A stretch of DNA of 24,000 bases from an uncultured Acetivibrio sp. (GTDB taxonomy: Bacteria; Bacillota; Clostridia; Lachnospirales; Lachnospiraceae), in contig CATKYY010000002.1 of assembly GCA_949841225.1 (NCBI GenBank), positions 25,357-49,356 of the forward strand, written 5' to 3'. Shown here one piece after another: positions 7,716-24,000 of this stretch. Every line of letters starts with the position of its first letter. Position 1 is the first letter of the stretch. The translations under genes and the position numbers were made by a program. The notes beneath the pieces were generated by a model, which was given only the letters and a program-made list of their open reading frames with translations, did no database searches and was not told the DNA's origin.

Positions 7716-8540
7716 TTACAGTTTTCCACCTGATGTTGCAATACCTTCAATGAACTGTTTCTGGAAAATCAAATACAGAACAATCATTGGAATACATGCT
7801 AAAAGGGATGCCGCCATCAACTGCGGATAGTTATTCGTATACTGTCCCTGCATTTTAGCAAGAGCCGCCGACAATGGCATAAGGTCTCTGTTACAAATCA
7901 AAGGCCACATCAGGTCTTTGTATGCAAATACTGCAGTAAAGATACCCAGCGCTACCATAGAAGACCTTGTCAGAGGCGCCATAATGAATAAAAACGTCTG
8001 GCCAATATTACAGCCGTCAAGCCTTGCCGCTTCTTCCAAATCCCTTGGCAGCCCCATATATGCCTGCCTTAACAAGAAAGTACCAAAAGCAGTTACAAGT
8101 CCTGGGAATATCAATGCAAACATGGTATTTAACATTCCCATATTACTTACCATCAAATACTGTGGAATGATAAAAATCTGGCCCGGCACCATCATCTGGA
8201 ATAAAACCAGCGAGAACATCAAGTTCTTTCCCCGAAACTCCAGACGAGCAAAGGCATATCCCGCCAGGGTAGCTGTTAAAACAGCGGCTACCACACGTCC
8301 CAGAATAAGGAGCAGCGTATTAATATACAGGCCTATGAAATCCATGTTATTGATTACCGTTTCAAAGTTTGTCGTCAGCCACTTTGAAGGAAAAATTACA
8401 AACGGATCTACCGATGTAGACTCTGTAACCGTCTTAAATGCAGTCAAAATCATCCATAAAAATGGCACTAACATAGTGATAGATACCAGAACCAAAACGA
8501 CATGGATGATGATATTCATCATTTTTTCTCTCGCTTCCAT
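7716..8540 (-). CDS. Carbohydrate ABC transporter permease (CUT1 family, MsmG/MalG-like)
   Basis: 274 aa with six TM segments and the EAA loop LEEAARLDGCNIGQTFLFIMAPL. A strong SD (AAGGAGGG) precedes ATG 8540. Confidence 0.9.
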   Translation of the reverse strand: MEAREKMMNIIIHVVLVLVSITMLVPFLWMILTAFKTVTESTSVDPFVIFPSKWLTTNFETVINNMDFIGLYINTLLLILGRVVAAVLTATLAGYAFARLEFRGKNLMFSLVLFQMMVPGQIFIIPQYLMVSNMGMLNTMFALIFPGLVTAFGTFLLRQAYMGLPRDLEEAARLDGCNIGQTFLFIMAPLTRSSMVALGIFTAVFAYKDLMWPLICNRDLMPLSAALAKMQGQYTNNYPQLMAASLLACIPMIVLYLIFQKQFIEGIATSGGKL

Positions 8541-8552
8541 ATCTATCCCTCC

Positions 8553-9455: not shown

Positions 9456-9477
9456 TCCCTTTCATTAACCGACCGAT

Positions 9478-10767: not shown

Positions 10768-10894
10768 AGTTTCCTCCTTTTCGTCATAACGACATGTTTT
10801 TTCTGTGATTATTTTATCGTTTTATACAAATTTCATAAATGGAATAAAAAACTAACTTTATGGTTTTTTGAATATAGAAAAATGATTTTTTTTA

Positions 10895-10923
10895 TGGCAA
10901 AATGTCCTGCCTTGGGTTATAAT
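10895..10923 (+). promoter_or_regulatory. Candidate sigma-A promoter for the AraC-family regulator (TGGCAA-17 nt-TATAAT)
   Basis: TGGCAA at 10895-10900 and TATAAT at 10918-10923, ~35 nt upstream of ATG 10958, which has the SD AGGAGAA. Identified by eye only. Confidence 0.4.
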
Positions 10924-10957
10924 CAAAATATACTATAAAAAGAAGAAGGAGAATCGT

Positions 10958-11887
10958 ATGAACAATATCAAGTACACTGACAGCGCACAGTTTAAATGCT
11001 TGGAACATTTGCGGCAGACTTCTCTTGACTTATACCTGATACACTGTGGCAAAGAACAATGCCCCCCGTCGCATATATGCCCCGGGCGGCGGGACGAATA
11101 TATCATCCACTTTGTACTATCGGGAAAAGGAACCTATCTGGCAAACGGGAGTATATGGGAGGTTAAACCAGGCCAGATGTTCCTTATATATCCCAACGAA
11201 CCAGTAACCTATGCTTCAGATTCTGAGGACCCCTGGAGCTATGCATGGATTGGATTTAACGGCATTCAGGCAGACCGAATCATTAAAAACTGCGGGTTCT
11301 CAAAAAAGCGCTTAGTACAGCAATACAGAAATGCTGATACCATTATACATAATGTTGATAAAATCCTGGAAGCACGACAGCTTTCTTATACAAATGATCT
11401 AAAACGAAAATCTTATTTGTTTATGCTACTTTCTGAACTGGTAGACAGCTACCTGGCCCTTGAACCAAAAAAAGCTATTGGCAAATATGATTACCGCAGC
11501 AATGTATATGTAGAGCATGCCATCGAATATATTAGATTTTCATATCAGGAAGGCATTAATGTATCTGACATTTCTGATTACATCGGTATCAGCAGAACCT
11601 ATTTAAACCATACCTTTCAAAAAGAACTTGGCATCTCTGTTCAAAAATTTTTAATAGATTTTCGCCTTCACAAAGCTGCAAATATGCTGACCAGTTCAGA
11701 TAAAACAGTAAATGAAGTCGCAAAATCTGTCGGATATGAAGACCCTCTTGCTTTTTCAAAAGCATTCAAGAAAAAATTCGAAATAAGCCCAAAACACTAC
11801 CGGGCCCATCAAGATAAAATGGAGAAATTCTCCGAAAAACAAATCGATCCAGTTCCACCTAGTATTCATATTGAAGCCATAAAATAA
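10958..11887 (+). CDS. AraC-family transcriptional regulator (cupin sugar-sensing domain plus two HTH motifs), MsmR/RafR-like
   Basis: The N-terminal cupin-like block is YIIHFVLSGKGTY...GQMFLIYPNEP. The C-terminal AraC HTH pair is ISDYIGISRTYLNHTFQKELG and VNEVAKSVGYEDPLAFSKAFKKKF. It is divergent from the sugar ABC operon. Confidence 0.88.
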   Translation: MNNIKYTDSAQFKCLEHLRQTSLDLYLIHCGKEQCPPSHICPGRRDEYIIHFVLSGKGTYLANGSIWEVKPGQMFLIYPNEPVTYASDSEDPWSYAWIGFNGIQADRIIKNCGFSKKRLVQQYRNADTIIHNVDKILEARQLSYTNDLKRKSYLFMLLSELVDSYLALEPKKAIGKYDYRSNVYVEHAIEYIRFSYQEGINVSDISDYIGISRTYLNHTFQKELGISVQKFLIDFRLHKAANMLTSSDKTVNEVAKSVGYEDPLAFSKAFKKKFEISPKHYRAHQDKMEKFSEKQIDPVPPSIHIEAIK

Positions 11888-11927
11888 GAACTCAGGGAGC
11901 TGCAGCTTCATGCCACAACTCCCTGAG
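11881..11927 (-). terminator. Rho-independent terminator closing the long minus-strand operon; also sits after the convergent AraC gene
   Basis: CTCAGGGAG (11891-11899) pairs with CTCCCTGAG (11919-11927), a 9-bp GC-rich stem. On the minus-strand RNA the stem is followed by UUCUUAUUUU (complement of 11881-11890). On the plus strand no U-tract follows. Confidence 0.6.
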
Positions 11928-11941
11928 CCCGATAACCTTAG

Positions 11942-12820
11942 CTATTCTATTGGTTTAAGATAAAAGCCTCCATAAAAATCTTCCGACTTAAAGGTATTGA
12001 TAATCGCATGGGGATCAACGTCCCTCATAAGCTTTGCAATATCCTGAATTTCATAACTGGACACTACCGTATGCAAAAGGCTTACGCTCTTTCCGCTGTA
12101 CCCTCCAATTCCATCCACTCTGGAAATACCATGCCGGTATTCTGCCACATACGCCTTGATAATATCGTCCGCTTTGCTTGTCGTCACCTGCATTGTCATA
12201 CGCTCATACCTGTGATAGAAGGAATCTATGGTTTTTGTAGAAATAAACTGGAATAAAATAGAATATCCCGCATACTCCCAGCCAAACATAAATCCGAAAA
12301 TAGTAATCAACGTCGCATTAAATACAAATACATAACTCCAAATGGATTTTCCCAGCTTATTGGAAATAAACAAAGCGACAAAGTCTACGCCTCCTGTGGA
12401 TGCATTTCCCTTCAGGGCGATTACCGTCATGATTCCGTAAGAAAAGCCTCCAAAAATAACATTCAGCAAAACATCGTCAAATAAAGGCTCAAAGCTTAAT
12501 ACCTTTAAAAAGAAGCTGGCAAAAAATACCTGGAGCAGAGAGAAAAATGTAAATCTTTTACTAATGCTCTTACTGCATAATATAGCTACTGGAATATTCA
12601 AAACCAACATTCCCAGAGAGGTAGAAAAAGAAAAACCAAAAAAGGTGGAAGTAATCTTTTCTATCAAAATAGCTACCCCTGTGAACCCGCTAGAAAGCAA
12701 ATTAATCGGGTTCATAAAAATTTTCATAATGGCCGCCTGTAAAAAGCCCGCCAATAAAACGCTCAGGAACGTATATAAATACCTTAATTTTTCATTATTT
12801 CTTATTATATGAATGTTCAT
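11942..12820 (-). CDS. YitT-family membrane protein with a C-terminal DUF2179-like domain
   Basis: 292 aa. There are ~5-6 TM segments including STGGVDFVALFISNK. The soluble C-terminal domain is ISRVDGIGGYSGKSVSLLHTVVSSYEIQDIAKLMRDVDPHAIINTF. The start ATG overlaps the CutC stop (ATGA at 12817-12820). Confidence 0.7.
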   Translation of the reverse strand: MNIHIIRNNEKLRYLYTFLSVLLAGFLQAAIMKIFMNPINLLSSGFTGVAILIEKITSTFFGFSFSTSLGMLVLNIPVAILCSKSISKRFTFFSLLQVFFASFFLKVLSFEPLFDDVLLNVIFGGFSYGIMTVIALKGNASTGGVDFVALFISNKLGKSIWSYVFVFNATLITIFGFMFGWEYAGYSILFQFISTKTIDSFYHRYERMTMQVTTSKADDIIKAYVAEYRHGISRVDGIGGYSGKSVSLLHTVVSSYEIQDIAKLMRDVDPHAIINTFKSEDFYGGFYLKPIE

Positions 12821-13557
12821 ATCCTTGCAACCAGCTTCTTAACTAAATTTTCATCGACCACATCGTAATCATTTTCATGAGGCTCCGCCGCATAAGCATA
12901 GGATACCTCCGGGCCTGTCGTGGTAGGATCGCACAGCCAGCCCTTACAGGAGCTGTGAACCTGTGAGATTCCCGTCTTTTCCATCATTTCCTTTGCATTA
13001 TCTGCATTCATGCCGCTGCCTGCCAACAGCTCAATGCGGTCCCCGTATTTCTTCTGTAAATCGGCAATCAGCTCCATTCCGTCCATGGCCTTGGCCTTCT
13101 GACCGCTGGTCAGCACGCGGGTAACTCCCATTTCTATTAGCTTTTCCATTGTCTGATATGGGTCCTGCACACAATCAAAAGCACGATGGAAAACAGCCTC
13201 GCCTTTATACTCTTTAATAATATCAATAATTTCCTGGGTTTGGGACTCATCCACATTACCCTCTTTGTCAAGACATCCAAAAGCAAGACCGTCCGCCCCA
13301 TTTTCCATTAGCAGCCTGGCATCCGCTTTCATAACCTCAAATTCAGCGGCGCTATAGCAGAATCCAGCTCCTCTTGGCCTTACCATGGCAATGACCCTCA
13401 GCTCTGTATTTTTCTTTGTTAAAAGCAAAGTTCCCAGAGATGGAGTCAGGCCTCCCAGATGTAACGCGCTGTTTAATTCAATACGGCCTGCTCCTCCATG
13501 GTACGCCGCCAGTGCATCCTCATAGCTTCCGCAGCATATTTCTATTACTTTTTCCAT
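12817..13557 (-). CDS. cutC: CutC-family TIM-barrel protein (annotated copper homeostasis protein; true function unclear)
   Basis: [42 protein letters not shown] matches the remembered E. coli CutC N-terminus ([38 protein letters not shown]). I chose the start at ATG 13557 over 13569 because it puts the gene in the same register relative to the conserved leader element as copies B-D. Confidence 0.85.
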   Translation of the reverse strand: [246 protein letters not shown]

Positions 13558-13599
13558 ATTAATCCCCATTTCCGCACTGCCTTTTATGCATAGCAGTCT
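13558..13599 (-). repeat. Conserved pre-start leader element, copy A (upstream of cutC)
   Basis: Sense strand: AGACTGCTATGCATAAAAGGCAGTGCGGAAATGGGGATTAAT|ATG. ACTGC can pair with GCAGT to form a short hairpin ending just 5' of the GGAAATGGGG SD region. Confidence 0.55.
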
Positions 13600-13611
13600 T
13601 ATATAAAGCGC

Positions 13612-14703
13612 TTATCGAATCATTAAAGTAAAGCTGTTGCTTGGCTTAATACAATCTAAAATCAACTGCTCGCCTGTATTGATATGCCCTACATAGTTAT
13701 ATTCATCGCTTGCTTTAATCTCATCTAAAACAACCATCAGCTCGCCTGCATAATGCTTCAAATTATCATTTACAATAATTACGTCTCCCTTTGTGAAAAC
13801 ATCCTTGACATTTTCACGAGGAGCGATGGTCTCTCCCTTATATTTTATCCTTGGGAAGCTGGACCTTACTACCAACTCATTACAGTCGTCCCTGGAAGCA
13901 TGCATATCGCAGATAATAATTTCCTTTTCAATATCAGAAACTCCCTCTGCCAAATCAACCTTCATGGAGATTTTATTCAGGTTTACCTCCGCCATAGCCT
14001 TTAACTCTTCTTCGCTTGCAAAAGCGTTTCCAACCATAAAGTCGTTGCAGAAGCCCAAAGCGTTCAAATGCCTTACCTGCACATCAATTGGAAGATCTCT
14101 GTGAATTTCCAGCGTTGGCAATCCGTCATAGACCTCCCACGGACCATGGGTATGTTCTTCCTGGCTTGTTACAAAAGCCGCGTTATTGAGGCCTAAAGGC
14201 TGGTATTTGCTGTTTAATTCTTTAAAACGAGCAAGACCCATGCCTGTATTCCTCTGTGGATAGAAATTGCTGCAAATGCACATATTCGTCCGATTGGCGC
14301 CCTTTTCTAACATCATAGCCAGCGCCATATTACCGGATGCATTGTACTCAATCAAAATATTATGCGGATTCTTGGTAATCTCAATATCCTCTAATTCTCC
14401 AAAGTGGCCGTCCAAACGAATCACGTCTACGCCCATCTGAGCGAAAACAGACAAATCCCTTGGAGTTGCCCCAAGCCTTTCAAAAACCTCCGGGTTCGTA
14501 TCTACAGATACCATCAAGCCGCTCTCATGAGCAACGTTGCAAAACTCTGTAAACTCCTCTACAATCTTTTCCTTACTTTCCTTCACGGATAATAAACAGG
14601 TAAATACTCTTTTGAAACCATACTTTCCAGCCAACCTCATATAGTTATAGCATTCTTCCTTTGAAGCATGCTCTGGATAAACAGAAATTCCAAGTCTTTT
14701 CAA
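13612..14703 (-). CDS. DUF871/MupG-family protein (putative 6-phospho-beta-glycosidase; family prototype is 6-phospho-N-acetylmuramidase)
   Basis: 363 aa. The N-terminus MKRLGISVYPEH...YGFKRVFTCLL...GLMVSVDTNPEVFERLG...GVDVIRLDGHFG follows the remembered S. aureus MupG pattern (LGFSVY...GF..IFTSL...VDIS...GLRMDYG). The start is TTG 14703, with GGAGG 7 nt upstream overlapping the stop of the preceding gene. Confidence 0.7.
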   Translation of the reverse strand: MKRLGISVYPEHASKEECYNYMRLAGKYGFKRVFTCLLSVKESKEKIVEEFTEFCNVAHESGLMVSVDTNPEVFERLGATPRDLSVFAQMGVDVIRLDGHFGELEDIEITKNPHNILIEYNASGNMALAMMLEKGANRTNMCICSNFYPQRNTGMGLARFKELNSKYQPLGLNNAAFVTSQEEHTHGPWEVYDGLPTLEIHRDLPIDVQVRHLNALGFCNDFMVGNAFASEEELKAMAEVNLNKISMKVDLAEGVSDIEKEIIICDMHASRDDCNELVVRSSFPRIKYKGETIAPRENVKDVFTKGDVIIVNDNLKHYAGELMVVLDEIKASDEYNYVGHINTGEQLILDCIKPSNSFTLMIR

Positions 14704-14714
14704 AATAATTCCTC

Positions 14715-15830
14715 CTATAAACCTTTTAGCATTTCATACAATGCATAGGCATAAATCTGTGCATTTTTTTCAATGTCGCAAATCCGCATCCACTCGTTCG
14801 GCAGATGCCCGATTCCTTTTTGTCCCTTAAAACTCGGTCCAAAAGGAACAATGTTTTTAACTACCTTAGCATAGGTGCCGCCGGTCGTTGTAACCGCGCT
14901 GCCGTCCTCGCCCATAATTTCTTCATAGGCCTTTTCCAGGGTCTTAATCAAATAAGTATCCTTCTCAAAAAATACCGGATTAATATTAGAATCCAAGGTA
15001 AGCGTCATATGCTCGCTGCAAAGCTTTCCAAGCTTTTCTTCCATGGTTTCCAGCTTATAAGAAGCCGGATAGCTGGAAACCAGCGTTAAACCGCAGGTCT
15101 CTTCATCCTGGAACAGCTCTACCTTCCTTACCTGGTTCTTTCCAAATTCCTCGTCTGAATAATCAACCCCAAGACTGACGGACAAATCGCTCTGGTTCAA
15201 AATATACTGGTTCATAAAGGAAACCAGTTCGTCCAGATTATCCTTTGGAAGGCTGTATTTATATACTGCCCGTCCTCTCTCGGCATAAATAACCGGATAT
15301 TTGCAGTCCGGCGTCCAGCCCATAAGCGGATATTTATGGTCCTTAAAGTACCATTTCATATCCTCCATCCCGGTTTCTTCATTTGTTCCAAAAATAATCT
15401 TAACCTTTAAAGGAAATTCATAGCCAAGATCTGCCAACGCCTTCATTGCATATAAGCAGCAAAACATTGGTCCTTTATTATCCAGTACTCCCCTTGCATA
15501 CAGAGTTCCATCGATCTCTGTACATACAAAAGGGTCCGTCTTCCAGGCGCCGTTAATATCTACAACATCTAAATGCCCAACACAGGCAATATAATCCTCC
15601 GTATCTGGTCCATAAGAAGCAATACCAATCTGATTTCCTACATTTTCTGTTTCAAATCCCAGCCTCTCTGCAATTTCCAGGGCTTTATTCAGGCAGTCGG
15701 TAACTCTTTTTCCGAAAGGATGCTCTGGCGTAGCCGTATCCTGACGAGAATCCATGTTACACACTGTTTTAATATCCTCTACTAAAGCCGGAAGCAATTC
15801 GCTGACATGATTAATAATCTTTTCTTTCAT
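14715..15830 (-). CDS. M20-family metallopeptidase (PepV/dipeptidase-like catalytic blocks)
   Basis: 371 aa with intact M20 ligand blocks: CVGHLDVVD, YARGVLDNKGP, FGTNEETG, WTPDCKYPVIYAERG, GIGHLPNE. No signal peptide. Confidence 0.8.
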   Translation of the reverse strand: MKEKIINHVSELLPALVEDIKTVCNMDSRQDTATPEHPFGKRVTDCLNKALEIAERLGFETENVGNQIGIASYGPDTEDYIACVGHLDVVDINGAWKTDPFVCTEIDGTLYARGVLDNKGPMFCCLYAMKALADLGYEFPLKVKIIFGTNEETGMEDMKWYFKDHKYPLMGWTPDCKYPVIYAERGRAVYKYSLPKDNLDELVSFMNQYILNQSDLSVSLGVDYSDEEFGKNQVRKVELFQDEETCGLTLVSSYPASYKLETMEEKLGKLCSEHMTLTLDSNINPVFFEKDTYLIKTLEKAYEEIMGEDGSAVTTTGGTYAKVVKNIVPFGPSFKGQKGIGHLPNEWMRICDIEKNAQIYAYALYEMLKGL

Positions 15831-15873
15831 AATTTACCCTATTTCTGCACTGCTATTTGTGCATTACAAGTTT
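15831..15873 (-). repeat. Conserved pre-start leader element, copy B (upstream of the M20 peptidase)
   Basis: Sense strand: AAACTTGTAATGCACAAATAGCAGTGCAGAAATAGGGTAAATT|ATG. It is identical to copy C at 34 of 43 positions by hand alignment. TGCAC can pair with GTGCA. Confidence 0.6.
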
Positions 15874-15878
15874 ACTTG

Positions 15879-16832
15879 TTATTCCTCAACTGGCGCCATA
15901 CGCACGCGCATATACTCTTCCAGCCATTCCTGGCTTGCTACCTCAAAGGTGCAATGGCCATCTTCCTGCCTAGTTACAAGATAGACGGTAGGCTCCAGCT
16001 CTTCTGTAGCGACACTAAAGGAAAAGCCTGCAATATTTGTAGCGCAGCCAAACTCTCCCTTATTATTCATTGCAACAACAGAAAGGTCTCCGGCTGCTCC
16101 TCTTTTTTCCTTCAGCTTCTTATCCAGGTCGTTTACTGCTTTTTCACAAGCCTCTTGCGGCGTCAGGCCTTCCTTCATTAAACGAACAATTTCATAAGAA
16201 ATACAGCCCTTCATTAAATCCTCTCCTAAACCGGTAGCTGTAGCGCCGCCGACTTCAGAATCTGCGTAAAATCCAGAACCAACAATTGGAGAATCTCCAA
16301 CACGGCCGCTTCTCTTCATAAATAAACCGCTTGTGCTGGTAGCCGCCGTCACTGTCCCGGAATTGTCCAGGCAAACCATACCTACCGTATCATGTCCGTC
16401 ATAAGGCTTTAATTCCTGGCTAAGTTCTTTTTTCTTTTTCCTGTAAAATGCTTTTGCCCGGTCAGTAAGCATTTCTTTTTCTTCAAATTTAAACTCATGG
16501 GCATATTTTTCTGCTCCAGCTCCTACCAGAACATTATTTACCTTTTCCTCGCTAAGCTTCTTTGCAATACTGATTGGATTTGCAAAATCCTTGATGGCTC
16601 CAATCGCGCCTACGCTCATTGTGTCCCCATCCATATAGCCTGCGTCCAGCTCAACCACCTGTTCTTCGTTTGGCAATCCGCCGTAGCCTACAGACTTATA
16701 ATATGGGAAATCCTCTACCGCGCGAATTGCGGCCTCAATCGCCTTACCTGATGTTTCTCCGTCCTTTAATAACCCTTCTGCAAGCTCAATTCCTTCTTTT
16801 GCCATTCTCCATGTGGCTATAATCCCATGCAT
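15879..16832 (-). CDS. Ntn-hydrolase of the asparaginase_2 family, glycosylasparaginase (aspartylglucosaminidase) type; cytoplasmic
   Basis: 317 aa. The autoprocessing and nucleophile block DGHDTVGMVCLD resembles human AGA RGHDTIGMVVI. GRVGDSPIVGSGFYAD resembles AGA GRVGDSPIPGAGAYAD. The N-terminus IIATWRMAKEG resembles AGA VVNTWPF, whereas isoaspartyl peptidases start with IHGGAG. SVGYGGLPNE...ELDAGYMDG is also present. The protein starts directly at the conserved core with no signal peptide. Confidence 0.75.
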   Translation of the reverse strand: MHGIIATWRMAKEGIELAEGLLKDGETSGKAIEAAIRAVEDFPYYKSVGYGGLPNEEQVVELDAGYMDGDTMSVGAIGAIKDFANPISIAKKLSEEKVNNVLVGAGAEKYAHEFKFEEKEMLTDRAKAFYRKKKKELSQELKPYDGHDTVGMVCLDNSGTVTAATSTSGLFMKRSGRVGDSPIVGSGFYADSEVGGATATGLGEDLMKGCISYEIVRLMKEGLTPQEACEKAVNDLDKKLKEKRGAAGDLSVVAMNNKGEFGCATNIAGFSFSVATEELEPTVYLVTRQEDGHCTFEVASQEWLEEYMRVRMAPVEE

Positions 16833-16843
16833 AAACCTTCCTC

Positions 16844-17908
16844 CTAATATTCTAATATTTCCCCATAAACCTTTTCATTCATATCCTTAGCAAGCTCACA
16901 AATCAGGCGGATACACGCCTCTACGTCATCTGCGTGAATAATGCTGTGATTTGTATGCATATACCTGATAGGAATTGACAAAGTCATATTCACAACTCCC
17001 TCAAATGCCTTATGGATATTTCCAGAATCCGTTCCGCCCATATTAAATATTGCATATTGATGCTCAATATCATTCTTTTTGCAAATCGACTCAACATACC
17101 TGACAAGTCCCCGCGGGGCAATAGAGTTAGAATCAATCATTGACAGCACTACGCCTTTGCCCAAAGAGCAAATATTATGGTTCATCGGCGTATCGCCAGC
17201 TAAAGTAGTATCAATAGCAAAGGCAATATCTGGATACACCGTCTCTACAGCCGTCCTGGCTCCGCGAAGCCCCGGCTCTTCCTGAACTGTATTCGCCAGG
17301 TACAGCGGCGTATGCTCTTCCTTTTCCAGTCTTTTAGCGGCCTCTATCATAATATAATTGCCAATACGGTCGTCAAAGGCCTTACAGGAGATATATTTCT
17401 GATTGTTCATAACCTCAAAATGGGCTAATGGGGCTACCATATCCCCAACCTGAATTCCCAGGTCCAGCGCCTCCTGCTTGCTTCCAACGCCCAAATCCAG
17501 ATACACGTCTTCAATAGAAACCGTTTTGTTCCTGGTTTCCGCAGGCAGCCCATGCGTTGCCATGCTGCCCATCAGAGCATGGTATTCCCTTTTATCTCTT
17601 GTTACAATAGTATACCACTGCCCTAAAACCATATGGCTCCACCAGCTACCGATTGTCTGTACCTTAATAAATCCATGGTCGTCAATGCTTTTTACCATAA
17701 ACCCAACTTCATCCATATGGGCTGCAACCATCATCTTAGGTCCGCTGTGATTGGTACATTTACTAGCGATTACACTGCCCAACCCATCTCTTTCACATGG
17801 AAGGTTAAGAGCCTTATATTCTTCCTCCAGAATATTTCCAATTTCCTGTTCAAAAGAGGAAATACCATAGGCAGAACATATTTTATCTAATTTTTCTAAA
17901 TTAATCAT
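16844..17908 (-). CDS. M42-family (TET/FrvX-like) aminopeptidase with an intact metal site
   Basis: All five M42 ligand blocks are present: AAHMDEVG, KAFDDRIGN, VQEEPGLRGA, AFAIDTT, RYMHTNHS. I set the start at ATG 17908 (MINLEKLDKICSAYGISSFE). It aligns with the N-terminus of the upstream paralogue, lies 1 nt after that gene's TGA, and has GGTGAT upstream. The track start at 17935 would overlap by 26 nt. Confidence 0.85.
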   Translation of the reverse strand: MINLEKLDKICSAYGISSFEQEIGNILEEEYKALNLPCERDGLGSVIASKCTNHSGPKMMVAAHMDEVGFMVKSIDDHGFIKVQTIGSWWSHMVLGQWYTIVTRDKREYHALMGSMATHGLPAETRNKTVSIEDVYLDLGVGSKQEALDLGIQVGDMVAPLAHFEVMNNQKYISCKAFDDRIGNYIMIEAAKRLEKEEHTPLYLANTVQEEPGLRGARTAVETVYPDIAFAIDTTLAGDTPMNHNICSLGKGVVLSMIDSNSIAPRGLVRYVESICKKNDIEHQYAIFNMGGTDSGNIHKAFEGVVNMTLSIPIRYMHTNHSIIHADDVEACIRLICELAKDMNEKVYGEILEY

Positions 17909-17909
17909 T

Positions 17910-18926
17910 TCAATCACCAAACCCAAATTCAGCAAGCTTTTTAGAATTTATTGTTTCTAAATAAGCGGCCAATGCATTAACTAAAGCATCCACGTCCTCT
18001 GCCCTGCAGATTTCATTTGCGCTTCCCATATTATCTACTGCAATGCCCACGCTGATTGCAGGGGTTCCCTTTAACGTCTTATGAATAAAAGAACCGTCGT
18101 TTCCAGTCAGACCAAAATAAGCCTTTGTTTCCACTTCTTTTGCAAAATCCTTTAAAAATACCTGGGACGGCAACATCTGGCGGTCATAATAACCAAGAAC
18201 AACGCCGTCTCCCGGATGCACCTTTTTCTGCGCTGTATCAAAGCCTGTCAGAGCAATAGCGGCATCCGGCTTAATTACATAGGTTGCCGTTTTCGTTCCT
18301 CTGTACCCAATAACAGACTGTCCAATACACCCGGCAGCAATATGGAAATCAAATTCTTTATCTTTTATCTTTTCCATAAGCTCCAGCGTAACCTCATTGA
18401 AAACACGAGGGAAAAGAGCCTTTGACATAATAATTCCGTTATTTTCATTGAAATTATTTCCATAAGCTACCAGGTCTCCCGGATGAAGCAGCTCCTTCAT
18501 CTCATCATACTTCAAACCGCACTCAATTACCAAGTCGTCTGCGCTCTTGATTTCACACTTATCTTCCAGCGCCTTTTTCCCCGTAGTAATTACGCCGTCT
18601 ACATAGGTATTCTCTCTTGTCAGTATCCGCACGCGCTGATGCAAAAGAGAGCTTGGCGAAACGCTTTCCAACTGAATGAATGCAAGAGTTCCATTGTCCT
18701 TTACTTCTGAAACCATAAGCCCTACTTCGTCCAATGCAGAAGCGATCATCAATGTCTGCGCCGTTTCATTCTTTGACCTTTTGAATGCAAAAACCGAGCC
18801 CAGCCGATCGCATTTTATTTCATCGCATAAAGGCTCATAATCTTTTTGAAGCGTTCTTCCAATCATATGCTCCGCGCTGCTGACCCCAAAACTATTACAT
18901 AATTTTTCTAATCTCTTGGTATCCAT
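17910..18926 (-). CDS. M42-family paralogue with all five metal-ligand positions substituted (probable pseudo-peptidase subunit)
   Basis: 338 aa, colinear with the downstream M42 (MDTKRLEKLCNSFGVSSAE vs MINLEKLDKICSAYGISSFE). The ligand blocks read ASALDEVG (H to A), KALFPRVFN (DD to FP), GQSVIGYRG (EE to SV), AIALTGF (D to T) and VDNMGSANE (H to G). The SD AAAGGAG precedes ATG 18926. Confidence 0.75.
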   Translation of the reverse strand: MDTKRLEKLCNSFGVSSAEHMIGRTLQKDYEPLCDEIKCDRLGSVFAFKRSKNETAQTLMIASALDEVGLMVSEVKDNGTLAFIQLESVSPSSLLHQRVRILTRENTYVDGVITTGKKALEDKCEIKSADDLVIECGLKYDEMKELLHPGDLVAYGNNFNENNGIIMSKALFPRVFNEVTLELMEKIKDKEFDFHIAAGCIGQSVIGYRGTKTATYVIKPDAAIALTGFDTAQKKVHPGDGVVLGYYDRQMLPSQVFLKDFAKEVETKAYFGLTGNDGSFIHKTLKGTPAISVGIAVDNMGSANEICRAEDVDALVNALAAYLETINSKKLAEFGFGD

Positions 18927-18941
18927 AATTCTCCTTTTTTT

Positions 18942-18970
18942 AAAAGGCCTTATTAAAAATAAGGCCTTTT
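18942..18970 (-). terminator. Intra-operon 11-bp perfect hairpin; weak terminator, attenuator or processing/stability element
   Basis: AAAAGGCCTTA (18942-18952) is the exact reverse complement of TAAGGCCTTTT (18960-18970), with a 7-nt loop. It lies between the GrdB-like gene stop (18975) and the SD of the first M42 gene. Only a 4-U tract is available on the sense RNA. Confidence 0.4.
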
Positions 18971-18974
18971 ACAT

Positions 18975-19499
18975 TTAATAACAAACTCGGTTTTTAATGC
19001 TCTCAAGATCGCTCGAATTTTCAACCATGCCTGTAATAAGGTCGCATAAATCTGAGAAACTGTCATTTAAGCCGGTTCCTCCCTTTTTCGGCATTTTAAC
19101 AATAGGAGTTTTGTCTTTATAATTTTCAATTGTGTCTGCATTTTCAACCGACATCATAGCGCAGGACTTAAGATCCGTGTTCTCTGAAATGGACGCGGAA
19201 ATCATAGCCGCCATTTTAGCATAATCAGGGAAGTTAAAGCATGGGCCGCATACAACAAAGTCAGGGTTTACCTTCTTTGCCATAGCTGTCATTTTCTTTA
19301 TAACCTCTTCCTGGTTGTTTAAGAAATATTCATTACCGCAATATAAAGTAGCAGCAACTGTAGCTCCGATTTTAGCAAAATGGGATTCCAGCATCAACGC
19401 TGAACCAATACCGCCCTTTACAGCAGTCAATCCAACATTTGGATTTGTTTTTCCTCCGGCTCCAGCTAAGCCTTGATCAAAAATCAATACTATTTTCAT
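18975..19499 (-). CDS. Stand-alone homologue of the N-terminal domain of glycine/sarcosine/betaine reductase component B (GrdB-like); function unknown
   Basis: 174 aa. MKIVLIFDQGLAGAGGKTNPN...GIGSALMLESHF...ATVAATLYCGNEYFLNNQEEVIKKM...NPDFVVCGPCFNFPDYAKMAAMISASI parallels my recollection of GrdB N-termini (VVHYINQFFAGIGGEEKAD...GPGMALQ...IVATVICGDSYFNEN...PDLFIAGPAFNAGRYG). There is no in-frame TGA. I set the start at ATG 19499, 2 nt after the EIIC TGA; the track uses TTG 19505. Confidence 0.45.
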   Translation of the reverse strand: MKIVLIFDQGLAGAGGKTNPNVGLTAVKGGIGSALMLESHFAKIGATVAATLYCGNEYFLNNQEEVIKKMTAMAKKVNPDFVVCGPCFNFPDYAKMAAMISASISENTDLKSCAMMSVENADTIENYKDKTPIVKMPKKGGTGLNDSFSDLCDLITGMVENSSDLESIKNRVCY

Positions 19500-19501
19500 A
19501 A

Positions 19502-20854
19502 TCAATCCAACCCCAAATCATCAAATGATAAATCGTCAATTTCGTCTGTCTGTCCTTCCAGCGCACTTTCCTCATCTAAATACTTCTTATCCAGCAGCTT
19601 GAAGAATGGGTAGTAAACTAAAATATCTACTACTAACTGAACAATCTGGACAAGAGAGCCCATTACGCTTCCTGTTACCAGGAAACCGGATGCGATGATA
19701 GGAGTCGTCCATGGAAGCTGAACGCCTAATGTGATTGGCATAATACCTACAACAGTAGCTAAATATGCAATAATTGTGTTAATAACTGGCACCAGGATAA
19801 ACGGAATTGCCATCAATGGGTTTAATACCATTGGCAGACCGAAAATAATCGGCTCATTAATTCCGAAGATACCTGCCGGCAATGACAGCTTTCCAAGAGT
19901 TTTCATACGGTTTGACTTTCCTAAGAACGCCATCATGATAACCAGGCCCAGAGTACTTCCGCCGCCGCCAAAGTTACAGAAGAAATCTGAGAAACCAGCT
20001 GTAAAGATGTTGGTCATTTCCAAACCAGCCTGAGCTGCTTCATAGTTTTCAACTGTCAGTACCTTATGTATAGGAGCGAAAATTGTATTGGTTACGGCTG
20101 GTCCGTTAATACCGAAAAACCAGAACAAGGTGGATAAGAACTGATAGATTACTTCAAATCCTGCCAACTTACCTAAACCAACCAATGGAGCCTGCAGTAC
20201 CTGATAAATAAAGTAATGTACATATTTGTAGCTTGTGTGGTCGAATATAATACCAATCGCAAAGAAGATAACCATTGCAATCGCAGATGGTATCAATGCT
20301 GCTAAAGATTCCATTACTGCAGGAGGCACGCCTTCTGGCAATTTAATAATCAATTTCTTCTTAATAGCCCAGGCATAAATCTCAACAGATATAATTGCAG
20401 TAATCATCGCAAGGAACATACCTGCAGTTCCTAAGAAAGTGAAAGTAAATCCACTAACAGAGCCTGCTTCTGCAGCGCCTTCTAATTCTACGATAGTTTT
20501 CTGTGGAGTAATAATCAAGAAACATACTAAAGCTACAACTCCGCCGCCGATTCTGTTTTCCAAGCCTTTTTCACGGGCATAACAATAACCAATACTCAAT
20601 ACGCCCAGCAGAGCAACGCAGTCAAAAGCAATCGCTGTTACCCTTCCCATGTAAGCGTCCCAGCCTTCTCCAAAAATAGAGGTCATGAAGTTTAAAAAGC
20701 CCTCTATTGGGAAGTTAGAAATTAACAGGAAAATAGAACCAACAATGGTAATTGGGACAGTAATCAAAAATCCGTCTCTAATCGCAGATAATACCTTATT
20801 CTTTGACAGAATATTTGCAACAGGCATTAAAAGCTTTTCAAGTTTCTGCATCAT
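19502..20854 (-). CDS. PTS EIIC, lactose/cellobiose/chitobiose (Lac) family
   Basis: 450 aa and polytopic. The Lac-family EIIC signature GINEPIIFGLPMVLNP resembles ChbC/CelB ITEPVIFGLPIVMNP. An acidic C-terminal tail (DEESALEGQTDEIDDLSFDDLGLD) is present. Confidence 0.9.
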   Translation of the reverse strand: MMQKLEKLLMPVANILSKNKVLSAIRDGFLITVPITIVGSIFLLISNFPIEGFLNFMTSIFGEGWDAYMGRVTAIAFDCVALLGVLSIGYCYAREKGLENRIGGGVVALVCFLIITPQKTIVELEGAAEAGSVSGFTFTFLGTAGMFLAMITAIISVEIYAWAIKKKLIIKLPEGVPPAVMESLAALIPSAIAMVIFFAIGIIFDHTSYKYVHYFIYQVLQAPLVGLGKLAGFEVIYQFLSTLFWFFGINGPAVTNTIFAPIHKVLTVENYEAAQAGLEMTNIFTAGFSDFFCNFGGGGSTLGLVIMMAFLGKSNRMKTLGKLSLPAGIFGINEPIIFGLPMVLNPLMAIPFILVPVINTIIAYLATVVGIMPITLGVQLPWTTPIIASGFLVTGSVMGSLVQIVQLVVDILVYYPFFKLLDKKYLDEESALEGQTDEIDDLSFDDLGLD

Positions 20855-20857
20855 AAA

Positions 20858-21181
20858 TTAATTCCCTCTACTTTCTTTGTAAATCTTCAGTGCCTTTTTC
20901 AGAACTCTCTCGCCGTCTACGTTACCATAGTCAACGCTATCAATAACGGTAACAACATGGTCCTTACTATATCTTTCAGCAACCTTCTCATAAAGATGCT
21001 TTACCTGCGGCCCTAACAGAATTACTTCTGGATTGAATTCATTTACAATATCACCCATGTTGGCCTCAGAAAATGCCTTTACCTCCAAATCCAGCTTATG
21101 CGCGTCAGCAACTTTCTGCATTTTGCTTGCTAACAAACTTGTAGACATTCCAGCGCTGCAAAATAAATAGAATCTTTTCAT
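20858..21181 (-). CDS. PTS EIIB, chitobiose/cellobiose type
   Basis: MKRFYLFCSAGMSTSLLASKM matches E. coli ChbB HIYLFCSAGMSTSLLVSKM, including the phospho-Cys. LLGPQV and VIDSVDYGNVDGERVLK also parallel ChbB. Confidence 0.92.
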   Translation of the reverse strand: MKRFYLFCSAGMSTSLLASKMQKVADAHKLDLEVKAFSEANMGDIVNEFNPEVILLGPQVKHLYEKVAERYSKDHVVTVIDSVDYGNVDGERVLKKALKIYKESRGN

Positions 21182-21200
21182 TGCTCTCTCCCTCCTTCCC

Positions 21201-21509
21201 TTAATTTTTATTTTTGTATAACTCGATCAACTCTGCAACTAACAGCTTTGCTGTTTCTGCAGCCATTAATTGATCTTCCGCGTGCATTAACAGCAGGCAC
21301 ATTTCTGTTTTCTCTCCGCCTGCCTCTTTAGAAATCAAATCCGCATGCTGCTTATGTCCGTTTGCATAGCATTCATCTCCATGCTTCATTGTTTCCGCAG
21401 CCTTCTCAAAATCTCCTTTCTTAGCGCATTCCAGGGCGTTGATATAATCGCTCTTCGCCTCCCCGACAGCGGAAATAATTTTAAAGCAAATTAATTCCAT
21501 TTCTTCCAT
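21201..21509 (-). CDS. PTS EIIA, lactose/cellobiose/chitobiose type
   Basis: 102 aa of helical-bundle type. ...AKKGDFEKAAETMK...LLLMHAEDQLMAAE...AELIELYK parallels E. coli ChbA (QAKQGDFAAAKAMM...LVLVHAQDHLMTS...TELIELHEK), including the phospho-His. Confidence 0.9.
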   Translation of the reverse strand: MEEMELICFKIISAVGEAKSDYINALECAKKGDFEKAAETMKHGDECYANGHKQHADLISKEAGGEKTEMCLLLMHAEDQLMAAETAKLLVAELIELYKNKN

Positions 21510-21523
21510 AAGTATATACCTCC

Positions 21524-22084
21524 TTAAATTTTTTTATTTTCAATTACTTTACTGCGCGCCAAATAATCATGGACCGCCATATTGCTTTTAAATACCAGGA
21601 TCGCCGACACCGTCAACATTCCTGAGCTTATATAGTTTAATGCTTTTCCAGCCATGTCGAAGGTCAGCATAGAAACTATCTGCGTAAAATAATTACCGGT
21701 AAGCATAAAAGCTCCCTCTAAAAGCATAACTCCTGCAAGCTGTCGTATAGCAAGCTTTCCAGTGGAAAGCGGCTGGCCATTCTCATCAACAATCTTAATA
21801 CCCATAAGTTTTTTCCCTACTGTCTGGCCTTCCCATGCCCATAAAGGAATAATATAATAGTATACAGCGCCAAACAATAGTCCCAACAAGCCCGCCAACA
21901 ATCCATAAGGACTTTTAAATAAAGTAAGATCCGTATTGATTGCCTCTTCTCCTGTCAGCATATTCCATAAAAGACCCGCCGGTATTGTACTGAAAGCAGA
22001 CCCCAGATACCAGTCGATTAAAAATGCAAAGCCCCTTTTATTCCACGGCGCAAATGCTGCTTTCAATTTCGTTTGTTTTTTCAT
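21524..22084 (-). CDS. RDD-family membrane protein; first gene after the regulator
   Basis: 186 aa. WNKRGFAFLIDWYLGS and GQTVGKKLMGIKIVDENG are typical RDD-domain blocks, and there are 3-4 TM segments. Confidence 0.65.
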   Translation of the reverse strand: MKKQTKLKAAFAPWNKRGFAFLIDWYLGSAFSTIPAGLLWNMLTGEEAINTDLTLFKSPYGLLAGLLGLLFGAVYYYIIPLWAWEGQTVGKKLMGIKIVDENGQPLSTGKLAIRQLAGVMLLEGAFMLTGNYFTQIVSMLTFDMAGKALNYISSGMLTVSAILVFKSNMAVHDYLARSKVIENKKI

Positions 22085-22127
22085 ATTTTACCCTATTTCT
22101 GCGCTGCTTTCTGAACACGACGAGTTT
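22085..22127 (-). repeat. Conserved pre-start leader element, copy C (upstream of the RDD gene, i.e. of the PTS operon)
   Basis: Sense strand: AAACTCGTCGTGTTCAGAAAGCAGCGCAGAAATAGGGTAAAAT|ATG. The AAGCAGCGC part (complement of 22101-22109) pairs perfectly with GCGCTGCTT (complement of 22133-22141), giving a 9-bp stem with a 23-nt loop. Confidence 0.6.
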
Positions 22128-22157
22128 GTAGCAAGCAGCGCGTAGCACAAATCTCGG

Positions 22158-22180
22158 GATTGAAAATTAAATTTTCAATC
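22158..22180. promoter_or_regulatory. Perfect 23-bp palindrome GATTGAAAAT-TAA-ATTTTCAATC between the regulator and the PTS operon; candidate operator
   Basis: The 10-bp arms are exact reverse complements (22158-22167 and 22171-22180) with a 3-bp spacer. On the minus strand it contains TTGAAA, which with a 17-nt spacer and GAGATT (complement of 22150-22155) forms at best a weak, activator-dependent-looking promoter. Confidence 0.4.
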
Positions 22181-22191
22181 TTAGCCTTATT

Positions 22192-24000
22192 TCAGCACTT
22201 AATAATTAAATCAATGAACTCTTTTGCGCTTTGCGCTTTCATAATATTTGATAAAAGCAGGGTATCATCGCAGATATTTCCAAACCATTCAAAAAAAATC
22301 TTTAATAAATCTCTTTCATCCTCCCGAATAGCCAGAAGTAATACCAACCTGACCTGATAACCCCCCCATTGCACAGGTTTCTTTAAAATAGCAATACCCA
22401 TAGTAGACTTAACCGCCGAATAATTTAACGCATGCGGAATAGCATAACCATAGCTAAAAGAGGTATACGCCATATTTTCCCTTTCAAAGGTAGACTCCTT
22501 AAAGGATTCCTCAACCCGGCCGCCTTCATACATCTTATCACATAAATATTCAATAACATTTTCATAGCTACTGCAATCCAGGTTATAAAAATAATAATCG
22601 TCTAAAATCAGGCCTCTGATGGATTTATCAAATTCCATCCTATAGTGCTTTTTATCAAGTTCTGTAATCGCCTGAAAAATCTTATATTCATCGCTGGTGT
22701 TTACAAACATACTTATGTGGACTGTCGGAATGTTCAATTTATGCGTAAGCGCTATCGTCGTAATAATCAAATCAGGATGAAGCCTTTCTATCACCGGCGC
22801 TTCATAATAGGACAAAACTGTATCAACAACTATTCTTTCACCAAAATGCTCTGCTATCTTATCTTTACAAATATCTGATAAGGTACTGCTGTTTGGCTGA
22901 ATCAAAACAGCATGGTAAAAAGATTTAATATTTAACCTGTCATAAGCCGCCCCAATATGGATAGCTAAAAAACCAATCTCATCTTCCGAAACCGGACTGT
23001 TCACATATTCCTCAATAATAGAGCCAACAAAAACTCCTACCTCAAATACCAGCGGATAATTCTTTTTAATTTCTGCCAAACAAACATTCGAAACGCCAAT
23101 TTTATAATTTATCCTCTCCAGGAGGTTCTGCAAATGCAGGACAATACCGTCTTTAAAAACAATATCGCCGGAAAAATCAATATCATATCTTTGCTTAACC
23201 ATATCTATAATTTTAAGCATTAACTCTTCCGCCTGCAGCGAATGTTCTTCTTTATCAAGAAAAGCGTTCCTTCGCCTGTCAACCAGCAAATTTGCAAATA
23301 AAATAATTTCATTCTCATTTAACTCAAAATGAAGAAAAGATGTTACCTTCTCAAAAAATTCTATTGCAATCTCATATTCCTGCGTTTCCTTAATTTCGCA
23401 GTAATTTTTTTTCGTCTCAATATAGTTGCAGTTCATCATTCTTTGGATAGCTACGCCTACATGTATAATCAGCATCGGAAAAGTTTCTTCACGAACTTTA
23501 TAATTATGCTTTTCAAAAATTTCTTCCAAAAAATTCTTTACTTTAACTAAATCAAAATTGGAAAATAACTGAGCAATCTTATTTACATTAATAAAATTAC
23601 CTCTCGTCTCACTGGCAAGCAAATCCTTATAAACAAACCGCTTGCTCTCCTCTCTACCCTTTAGATAAAGATAATTTCCATTTTTAACCAGCTCGACATC
23701 ATCGTACTTTTCCAACATTTCCATAAGCCTTTTGATGTCGTTTTTAATTGTGGATTCACTAACATAAATATCATACTGCAAATCAAAAATATTCAGCTTC
23801 GGTTTATAAAAAAGCAGCTTTTCAATAATATACTTACATCTCTCTTCTGAAGTATGGGGAATATTTCTCCTAACTTCTAAGTTACTTTTTTCAAAAACCT
23901 CTTGATTAATCCTGTAGCCATAACGAACGCTGGATTCGACAATTCCTTCATATAGCTTTCCCAACTGGTCTATATCGTTGCGAATTGTCCGGTCAGAAAC
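22192..24000 (-). CDS. PRD-domain transcriptional regulator of the LicR/MtlR/ManR class (HTH, HTH, PRD1, PRD2, EIIB-like, EIIA(Mtl/Fru)-like); 5' end off the window
   Basis: The track ORF starts at an internal TTG (23964). The frame stays open to base 24000 and reads VSDRTIRNDIDQLGKLYEG..., a typical HTH_11 helix, so the gene is 5'-truncated by the window. A second HTH is VSESTIKNDIKRLMEML. PRD histidines occur in MLIIHVGVAIQRM and FLAIHIGAAYDR. The C-terminal EIIA type-2 block is YGYAIPHALN...VRLVLLLAI. Confidence 0.8.
   Translation of the reverse strand, partial: VSDRTIRNDIDQLGKLYEGIVESSVRYGYRINQEVFEKSNLEVRRNIPHTSEERCKYIIEKLLFYKPKLNIFDLQYDIYVSESTIKNDIKRLMEMLEKYDDVELVKNGNYLYLKGREESKRFVYKDLLASETRGNFINVNKIAQLFSNFDLVKVKNFLEEIFEKHNYKVREETFPMLIIHVGVAIQRMMNCNYIETKKNYCEIKETQEYEIAIEFFEKVTSFLHFELNENEIILFANLLVDRRRNAFLDKEEHSLQAEELMLKIIDMVKQRYDIDFSGDIVFKDGIVLHLQNLLERINYKIGVSNVCLAEIKKNYPLVFEVGVFVGSIIEEYVNSPVSEDEIGFLAIHIGAAYDRLNIKSFYHAVLIQPNSSTLSDICKDKIAEHFGERIVVDTVLSYYEAPVIERLHPDLIITTIALTHKLNIPTVHISMFVNTSDEYKIFQAITELDKKHYRMEFDKSIRGLILDDYYFYNLDCSSYENVIEYLCDKMYEGGRVEESFKESTFERENMAYTSFSYGYAIPHALNYSAVKSTMGIAILKKPVQWGGYQVRLVLLLAIREDERDLLKIFFEWFGNICDDTLLLSNIMKAQSAKEFIDLIIKC

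Follow-up and report, generated by a model that had tools for sequence, protein, structure and literature searches.

An expanded, peptidase-rich ega-type phosphotransferase locus from an uncultured Acetivibrio, a candidate system for the salvage of N-acetylglucosaminyl-asparagine

N-acetylglucosaminyl-beta-asparagine (GlcNAc-beta-Asn, hereafter GlcNAc-Asn) is the stub left of an N-glycoprotein after endo-beta-N-acetylglucosaminidase and protease action. A 24,000-nucleotide stretch of DNA from an uncultured Acetivibrio sp. of the Lachnospiraceae (assembly GCA_949841225.1, contig CATKYY010000002.1, positions 25,357 to 49,356 of the forward strand; hereafter the window) carries a block of 13 genes that joins a phosphotransferase system (PTS) to peptidases, a glycosylasparaginase-type enzyme and a CutC-family protein. 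The block is an expanded, peptidase-rich version of the ega locus of Enterococcus faecalis, a kind of locus whose core has been known since 2023. With moderate confidence, it is read here as an ega-type PTS for the salvage of GlcNAc-Asn and probably also of short peptides bearing GlcNAc-Asn. The observations behind this reading are the gene content of the block, the integrity of its active sites, its ega-type homology and its conserved linkage.

The ega (enterococcal glycosylasparaginase) locus, egaRP and egaGBC(D) (Combret et al., Res Microbiol 175:104169), is the closest described system. According to two papers that cite this study (PMC11549559, PMC11976118), its first unit contains a GntR regulator and a dipeptidase, and its second unit contains the glycosylasparaginase EgaG, EIIB and EIIC of the lactose/cellobiose (lac/cel) PTS family, and an open reading frame (ORF) for a putative oxidoreductase. 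These papers name the free glycoamino acid GlcNAc-Asn as the substrate and the PTS EIIA CelA1 as necessary for its transport. The window resembles ega in its cytoplasmic glycosylasparaginase, its lac/cel EIIB and EIIC, its GrdB-like gene after EIIC, its M20 peptidase of the Sapep/PepV lineage, and the entry of an Asn-linked GlcNAc compound through a PTS that these genes imply. It differs in having its own EIIA, where E. faecalis borrows CelA1, in the shortened lid of its M20 peptidase, and in additional genes: an RDD-family membrane protein, a dead and live pair of M42 genes, DUF871, CutC and YitT.

An earlier reading of the window made from the sequence only (the sequence-only reading) had proposed that a PTS takes up a GlcNAc compound linked to Asn, and the ega gene content matches the core of the block. 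Its further statement that no PTS-dependent glyco-asparagine pathway had been characterized is out of date, as the ega locus was published in 2023 (Combret et al., cited in PMC11976118 and PMC11549559) and the concept is therefore not new. The novelty lies in the expanded architecture, in its wide distribution and in the functional leads that follow for orphan families, above all for CutC and the M42 pseudo-enzyme pair. Nothing in the literature searched described the expanded cluster (M42, PTS and asparaginase together).

Three other described systems share parts of the block. The Lactobacillus casei alf-2 operon (AlfH, AlfC, AsdA, PepV, AsnA2, SugK; PMC6960285) likewise links an intracellular glycosylasparaginase to a PepV-type peptidase and catabolizes a glycoamino acid of the N-glycan core. 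It differs in having a sugar kinase, a fucosidase, an aspartate decarboxylase and uptake by a major facilitator superfamily (MFS) permease, so that its sugar enters unphosphorylated and the kinase is needed; it lacks the M42, CutC, GrdB-like and DUF871 genes of the window. The mupG-murQ-murP-murR system of Staphylococcus aureus likewise has a PTS and, in the cytoplasm, a DUF871 enzyme acting on a 6-phospho-glycoside (PMC6262408), but its PTS (MurP) belongs to another family, its MurQ etherase has no counterpart in the window, and the DUF871 of the window is only accessory. The chbBCARFG operon of Escherichia coli shares the lac/cel-family EIIA, EIIB and EIIC; the window differs in lacking ChbF (GH4) and ChbG (a YdjC deacetylase) and in its regulator and hydrolase sets. 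Pfam and NCBIfam scans found no homologues of MurQ, MurP, ChbG or ChbF in the block.

Families were assigned by Pfam and NCBIfam profile searches of the window proteins, and these searches bore out every family call of the sequence-only reading, including the dead and the live M42. The genes from EIIA to the M20 peptidase were the following.

21201..21509, minus strand: PTS EIIA, lactose/cellobiose family (Pfam PTS_IIA, 2.1e-32)
20858..21181, minus strand: PTS EIIB, lactose/cellobiose family (Pfam PTS_IIB, 1.8e-12)
19502..20854, minus strand: PTS EIIC, lactose/cellobiose family, ega-type subfamily (Pfam PTS_EIIC, 5.5e-51)
18975..19499, minus strand: GrdB-like protein of 174 aa without selenocysteine (NCBIfam NF041545, GrdB_like_no_Se, 232.6 bits, cut-off 175)
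17910..18926, minus strand: M42-family pseudo-peptidase, M42a (Pfam Peptidase_M42, 5.4e-38)
16844..17908, minus strand: M42 aminopeptidase with a complete active site, M42b (Pfam, 1.7e-92)
15879..16832, minus strand: N-terminal nucleophile (Ntn) hydrolase of the glycosylasparaginase type, EgaG/AsnA2-like and cytoplasmic (Asparaginase_2; best PDB match, Elizabethkingia glycosylasparaginase)
14715..15830, minus strand: short-lid M20 peptidase, Sapep/PepV lineage, 371 aa (TIGR01887, 303 bits, cut-off 208)

The EIIC scored 395 bits against TIGR00410 (cut-off 236), and the EIIB carries a YLFCSAGMSTS motif with the phospho-Cys. Against the chitobiose-specific NCBIfam equivalogs, scores were 182 for IIC (cut-off 760), 66 for IIA (cut-off 148) and 80 for IIB (cut-off 157). 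These values lie far under the cut-offs, so the label "chitobiose-type" that had been given to this PTS is too specific and was dropped. The window EIIC was 51-88% identical to EIICs that adjoin GrdB-like genes and 30-42% identical to other lac-family EIICs within the same related loci. Between the window and the ega-type loci of Enterococcaceae, identity was 55-56% for Ntn, 44-53% for EIIC, 46-48% for EIIB and 47% for the GrdB-like protein.

Enterococcaceae loci arranged like the published one were recovered. The Enterococcus locus on CP023074.1 has the order GntR/UTRA, M20 (431 aa), Ntn, EIIB, EIIC, and the E. gilvus locus has the same layout with an EIIA. In Vagococcus fluvialis the order is M20, GntR, Ntn, EIIB, EIIC, GrdB-like, M42, M42. 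An Opp-type oligopeptide ATP-binding cassette (ABC) transporter, OppBCDF, adjoins the M42 pair of V. fluvialis (L086, 12824-16817), and may be an alternative route of glycopeptide uptake there.

The Ntn protein is nearer to glycosylasparaginases than to isoaspartyl peptidases, as the sequence-only reading had it. Scores against PDB entries were 181 bits for glycosylasparaginase, 123 for isoaspartyl peptidases and 70 for taspase, and the NCBIfam beta-aspartyl-peptidase equivalog gave 115 against a cut-off of 567. Residues W8, H147-D148-T149, T167, R177, D180, T200 and G201 were kept in 62-63 of 63 homologues; they align with T152, T170, R180, D183, T203, G204 and W11 of the Elizabethkingia enzyme. 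In that enzyme they include the Thr nucleophile of the autoprocessing site, an Arg and an Asp that bind the free alpha-carboxyl and alpha-amino groups, the oxyanion Thr and Gly, and the N-terminal Trp. Proteins 89% identical to Ntn are named N(4)-(beta-N-acetylglucosaminyl)-L-asparaginase by NCBI. By analogy with EgaG and AsnA2, Ntn would split GlcNAc-Asn. Three basic residues, R9, R125 and K/R174, are shared by the PTS-linked Ntn proteins and missing in the periplasmic enzyme. R9 adjoins the sugar-stacking Trp, and the three residues are weak candidates for ligands of a 6-phosphate.

The two M42 genes encode an unequal pair. At the seven metal and catalytic positions M42a has ADFSVTG instead of HDDEEDH and so keeps the M42 fold but lacks the active site, while in M42b the HDDEEDH set (two-metal site and catalytic Glu) is complete; M42b matched Bacillus subtilis YsdC (1vhe) at E = 6e-82. 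Among the M42 pairs of relatives, the first gene was degenerate in 52 of 52 and the second had an intact HDDEEDH in 52 of 52. This conserved couple of enzyme and pseudo-enzyme implies that M42a and M42b form a hetero-oligomer. The M20 peptidase aligns to PepV residues 14-200 and 316-466, about 115 lid residues being gone (those equivalent to PepV 200-316), so that it has less than the full two-lobed PepV lid of about 200 residues. All seven metal and catalytic residues are kept in 67-68 of 68 homologues, and the short length recurs in 64 of the 67 best M20 matches of related loci.

None of the hydrolases of the block has a hydrophobic, signal-peptide-like N-terminus, in agreement with the sequence-only reading. 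Glycosylasparaginases require free alpha-amino and alpha-carboxyl groups (PMC6960285), so peptidases make sense in this setting only if peptide-linked forms enter the cytoplasm. The pepV gene of L. casei, though linked to asnA2, is not required for the free glycoamino acid (PMC6960285), which fits a peptidase role on peptides. From this context, trimming of GlcNAc-Asn peptides by the M42 and M20 enzymes is suggested and plausible.

Scanning one genome per species with the GrdB-like alignment returned 158 relatives, and 80 loci were retained from these. Presence was then counted by tblastn of the 13 window proteins against the 51 species-level loci that had 8 kb or more of sequence on either side. 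EIIC was present in 100% of these, EIIB in 96%, M20 in 96% and Ntn in 94%. The M42 pair was present in 82%, RDD in 80%, EIIA in 80% and CutC in 73%. The PRD regulator (67%), YitT (49%) and DUF871 (47%) were less frequent. The EIIC/EIIB/Ntn/M20 core was thus near-universal (94-100%), unlike DUF871.

At least 15 genomes of Lachnospiraceae had the identical 13-gene order, and it was also found in Erysipelotrichaceae. Its flanks differed: pyruvate:ferredoxin oxidoreductase and a LytTR two-component system in locus L010, and an AraC/raffinose cluster in the window. Recurrence of the order with differing flanks places the arrangement beyond chance, and the variation of the flanks marks the block as a discrete unit. 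Across Lachnospiraceae and Erysipelotrichaceae the block proteins were 70-85% identical (L025, L026, L029 and L046 compared with the window). This is high for taxa so distant and suggests that the whole block spread horizontally among gut Firmicutes. The gene set was kept under three regulator types and in several gene orders. Clostridium versions had a sigma54/PRD (LevR-like) regulator and an additional full-length PepV, and the C. cadaveris cluster contained three peptidase types. The cluster abounds in Firmicutes of the human and mouse gut; the Ntn protein of one relative is listed on 422 contigs, and its index entries cover 639 blocks of the contig collection.

An abundant Erysipelotrichaceae relative had no DUF871 and two RDD genes. 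Directly upstream of the block in this relative (L005-L007) lies nagA (918-2057; TIGR00221, over cut-off), which ties the block to GlcNAc-6-phosphate (GlcNAc-6P) catabolism. A glucose-family EIICB (nagE-like PTS), an EIIA-Glc and a CAT/PRD antiterminator are likewise directly upstream. The strain variant L004 has lost the PTS, GrdB-like and M42 genes and kept Ntn-M20-CutC-YitT, its deletion joining a 180-aa stump of the regulator straight to these four genes. The hydrolase half can therefore persist alone.

The last two genes of the block were the following.

12817..13557, minus strand: CutC-family TIM-barrel protein (Pfam CutC, 4.4e-59)
11942..12820, minus strand: YitT-family membrane protein with DUF2179 (YitT_membrane, 3.2e-44; DUF2179, 8e-12)

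The CutC protein matched solved structures over its full length (human CUTC 3iwp, 6e-45; 1twd, 7e-44). The second Cys of the proposed copper site is replaced, the sequence being ELN instead of ELC, and the Cys pair that would bind copper in a copper-homeostasis role is thus incomplete. In E. coli, the copper phenotype behind the CutC name comes from the small RNA MicL instead of the protein (PMC4102768). Among 46 rearranged Firmicute loci, CutC adjoined Ntn in 14 and lay within two genes of it in 24.

The same gene pair occurs in a second phylum. On all three Hymenobacter megaplasmids (3/3) a glycosylasparaginase gene is followed by CutC with a 4-nt overlap (L090, 6878-8631; L092, 4884-6664; L093, 4884-6622), among GH92, GH2, ROK, NagB and MFS genes and with PTS genes absent. 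A metagenome scan anchored on Bacteroidota-type CutC with a narrow CutC alignment gave 80 loci (L096-L175). Ntn was present in 24 of these, upstream and on the same strand in 24 of 24; counting only the 55 loci with enough upstream sequence, it was present in 20. GH20 was also among the neighbors of Bacteroidota-type pairs in metagenome loci. These pairs resemble the window in that CutC directly follows Ntn, often with a 4-nt overlap. They differ in their periplasmic Ntn, which in Hymenobacter has a twin-arginine signal peptide while CutC has none, and in lacking PTS, M42 and M20 genes.

The Ntn-CutC pairs in PTS-free N-glycan clusters of Bacteroidota are an independent pointer to the role of CutC. 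The literature searched contained no description of Bacteroidota glycosylasparaginase-CutC pairs and no paper that links the two families. From the gene linkage, seen in both phyla, CutC very probably takes part in the catabolism of GlcNAc-Asn, at a stage after the amidase. That it hydrolyzes the glycosylamine product is a guess from context. YitT has five transmembrane-like segments, and its context allows the speculation that it exports a product.

The remaining genes of the block were a regulator, a small membrane protein and a DUF871 gene.

22192..24000, minus strand: regulator with Mga/HTH_11 helix-turn-helix, two PRD and an EIIA domain of the Mtl/Fru type (PRD, 3.8e-27; PTS_EIIA_2, 3.1e-22; Mga, 8e-09)
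21524..22084, minus strand: RDD-family small membrane protein (Pfam RDD, 3.4e-20)
13612..14703, minus strand: putative 6-phospho-beta-glycosidase of the DUF871/MupG family (MupG_N, 2.6e-75; MupG_C, 2.7e-30)

In related loci the RDD gene lies mostly just upstream of EIIB and is duplicated in some; its product is a candidate accessory subunit of the transporter. The GrdB-like gene is immediately 3' of EIIC in 79 of the 80 loci. GrdB proper is selenoprotein B of glycine/sarcosine/betaine reductase. The GrdB-like protein matches only positions 2-160 of the 347-position Pfam GrdB model, and is thus not a full-length GrdB (about 430 aa with a selenocysteine-containing C-terminal part). Its family is small, with 24 clusters at E<=1e-30. 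In an alignment of 24 sequences the motifs DQGLAGAGGK, TLYCG, CGPC and MPKKGGxGL were invariant or nearly so, the second Cys of the thioredoxin-like CGPC (C87) being at least 90% conserved and the first (C84) invariant. The AlphaFold2 model, a confident one (predicted local distance difference test score 91.8), leaves the Gly-rich loop GLAGAGGK disordered, and its comparison with PDB structures gave no informative fold match. A role as an accessory transporter subunit is speculative for the GrdB-like protein. For it and for RDD alike, the proposal was made because of an analogy with CelGHI, where small accessory proteins let a lac-family EIIC accept larger substrates.

The closest structure to the DUF871 protein was that of Bacillus cereus 1x7f (E = 3e-83). 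The sequence-only reading had made this enzyme a central step, which frees the 6-phospho sugar ahead of the Ntn hydrolase. That such a step is obligatory is unlikely, since the gene is missing from about half of the loci and from the Enterococcus loci, and also from an otherwise syntenic relative whose Ntn is 85% identical. Its presence in only 47% of loci marks it as accessory and not as a core step. The DUF871/MupG family has paralogues that differ in specificity. To judge from its context, the window protein is probably a lineage-specific add-on, a 6-phospho-beta-N-acetylhexosaminidase for chitobiosyl forms or for chitobiose.

The 13 ORFs are co-oriented and closely packed on the minus strand from beyond 24000 to 11942. 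The tight spacing that had been reported agreed with the ORF map and with the stop-to-next-start gaps, which along the block were 107, 14, 19, 3, 2, 48, 1, 11, 48, 11, 42 and -4 nt, counted with ATG 19499 as the start of the GrdB-like gene and ATG 17908 as that of the second M42 gene. The junctions that had been singled out were all found in the sequence: the ATGA at 12817-12820 that forms the CutC/YitT overlap, the M42a stop at 17910-17912 with the M42b ATG at 17908 (gap 1 nt), the EIIC stop at 19502-19504 with the GrdB-like ATG at 19499 (gap 2 nt), and the TAGGAGG, a stop codon overlapping a Shine-Dalgarno sequence, ahead of the DUF871 TTG start at 14703. ATG 13557, not 13569, is the likely start of CutC. 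As to the extent of the block, the end proposed at 11942 stood and the start at 24000 did not. The regulator has no start within the window and is 636 aa long on identical metagenome contigs (e.g., L001), so the block begins about 100 nt past 24000. Two hairpins were located.

11888..11930, minus strand: intrinsic terminator ending the block, 19-bp stem with 10 GC pairs (-35.9 kcal/mol, z = -6.56)
18941..18971, minus strand: hairpin with a 14-bp stem followed by UUUU (-19.9 kcal/mol, z = -3.78)

The strong terminator expected at the far end was thereby refined in position; it is bidirectional and common to the block and the convergent AraC gene. The second hairpin, overlooked in the sequence-only reading, sits between the GrdB-like gene and M42a, a junction where the intergenic gap is longest and varies most among relatives. 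It is a possible internal attenuator or RNA stabilizer dividing a transport module from a hydrolase module. Promoter-like and terminator-like scan matches in the window occurred only at chance frequency, so transcription units cannot be assigned from the scan. An Rfam search of the window gave no match.

Direct repeats of about 50 nt lie just before the start codons of RDD (22076-22127), M20 (15822-15873) and CutC (13549-13600). Their core is GCAGYGCRGAAATRGGG-N6-ATGRAAAAA, with a small stem that shows compensatory changes, and a fourth copy with two mismatches precedes the PfkB start (4613-4629). The core had four matches in the window against 0.04 expected. The 17-nt motif before the four start codons was absent from the orthologous loci of related species; the repeat is species-specific, and the motif was ruled out as an operon-specific regulatory site on this ground. 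Downstream of the block, positions 2770-11887 hold an unrelated cluster of the alpha-galactoside/raffinose type. Besides the convergent AraC regulator it comprises GH36, a PfkB kinase, and the sugar-binding protein and two permeases of an ABC transporter; an Amidase_3 gene (cell-wall amidase) comes after it.

The pathway that these genes would form begins with the PRD/EIIA-type activator, whose domains suggest that it makes expression depend on how the PTS is phosphorylated. Judged by its homology to EgaBC of E. faecalis, the lac/cel EIIA-EIIB-EIIC would import the compound and phosphorylate O6 of GlcNAc, possibly with RDD and the GrdB-like protein as accessory subunits, a part that is speculative. 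The hetero-oligomer of dead and live M42 and the short-lid M20 would strip flanking residues and free the alpha-amino and alpha-carboxyl groups of Asn. The glycosylasparaginase would then convert (6-P-)GlcNAc-Asn to aspartate and the (6-P-)GlcNAc glycosylamine, as expected from EgaG and AsnA2. CutC would act after this amidase step, glycosylamine hydrolysis being one guess, and GlcNAc-6P would enter NagA/NagB catabolism. Uptake with phosphorylation of GlcNAc-Asn and its cleavage to aspartate and (6-P-)GlcNAc-amine are thus predicted by homology. The fullest version of the pathway, in which N-glycopeptides as such are salvaged through the PTS, RDD and the GrdB-like protein adapt EIIC, the M42 complex and M20 trim, and CutC processes the product, is doubtful as a whole and is offered tentatively.

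Other readings of the block were weighed against this one. The block may handle only free GlcNAc-Asn, as in E. faecalis, with M42 and M20 serving peptides from other transporters (Opp) or having a non-peptidase role such as deacylation, and not acting on PTS-imported glycopeptides. The substrate in E. faecalis is indeed the free glycoamino acid, according to PMC11549559 and PMC11976118; minimal Enterococcus loci work without M42 genes, Opp genes adjoin the Vagococcus cluster, PepV is dispensable in L. casei, and no PTS is known to carry peptides. Yet 96% of loci contained M20 and 82% the M42 pair despite many rearrangements, and as many as three peptidase types occur within one cluster. Moreover, glycosylasparaginases need free alpha groups (PMC6960285), so that the peptidases would have a sense only with peptide-linked forms in the cytoplasm. 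Restriction to the free compound is a serious possibility, though we consider it unlikely.

Two readings change the substrate altogether. That the PTS takes up chitobiose or chito-oligosaccharides, or N-acetylmuramic acid (MurNAc)-GlcNAc, with DUF871 as the key enzyme and Ntn and the peptidases acting on stem peptides or iso-Asx cross-bridges, would agree with the DUF871 prototype MupG, which cleaves PTS-imported MurNAc-6P-GlcNAc, with the DUF871 genes of other lac-family PTS operons, and with the chitobiose transporters in the lac/cel EIIC family. It is improbable nonetheless: 53% of the homologous loci, one of them otherwise syntenic, have no DUF871, the block is without MurQ, MurP, ChbG and ChbF homologues, the Chb equivalog scores lie far under their cut-offs, and Ntn is nearer to glycosylasparaginases than to isoaspartyl peptidases and accompanies EIIC in 94% of loci. 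An Amadori or glycated asparagine such as fructose-asparagine, instead of an N-glycan remnant, is very improbable. Salmonella uses fructose-asparagine with the involvement of asparaginase-type enzymes, and the sequence-only reading had pointed to E. coli PTS operons with M42 genes whose substrates it gave as unknown. Against this, Pfam and NCBIfam scans found no deglycase, SIS-domain or kinase genes in the block, a lac/cel-family PTS takes beta-glycosides, and the Bacteroidota Ntn-CutC pair lies among GH92, GH20, GH2, NagB and ROK genes, an N-glycan context; the homologous Enterococcus system uses GlcNAc-Asn (PMC11549559, PMC11976118). Muropeptide, chitobiose and Amadori substrates were rejected on these grounds.

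Several points count against the favored reading, PTS-dependent salvage of GlcNAc-Asn and probably of its short peptides. All evidence from this organism itself is sequence. To our knowledge, no PTS imports a peptide-bearing sugar. The 44% identity of the window EIIC to the Enterococcus EIIC is barely over the 42% reached with some lac-family EIICs outside the ega type, and the M20, with its shortened lid, shares only 31-33% identity with the dipeptidase of Enterococcaceae. The PRD/EIIA activator of the window stands in place of EgaR, the GlcNAc-Asn-sensing GntR/UTRA repressor of ega, GntR/UTRA regulators being confined, among related loci, to Enterococcaceae. No endo-glycosidase, fucosidase or GlcNAc kinase was found in the operon. 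Co-transcription of the block is suggested by spacing and conservation, and the block has an internal hairpin at 18941-18971. The ega details are those given by citing papers. EgaG reportedly acts on the 6-phospho form and yields aspartate and 6-P-GlcNAc-amine. Finally, PMC11549559 gives the GrdB-type ORF as a pseudogene in OG1RF, the E. faecalis strain in which ega was named and studied, so the basic pathway can probably do without the GrdB-like protein.

Gut microbes that degrade the N-glycoproteins of host and diet inevitably leave GlcNAc-Asn and its peptides behind. The expanded block gives candidate functions for the M42 peptidases found in PTS operons, such as E. coli frvX, sgcX and ypdE, and for the pseudo-M42 partner, the GrdB-like and RDD proteins and the DUF871 paralogues. 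Above all it bears on CutC: the copper annotation of this family has been weakened, and in two phyla its gene is coupled to that of a glycosylasparaginase. If CutC does process the glycosylasparaginase product, this would be the first biochemical function for a family conserved from bacteria to humans.

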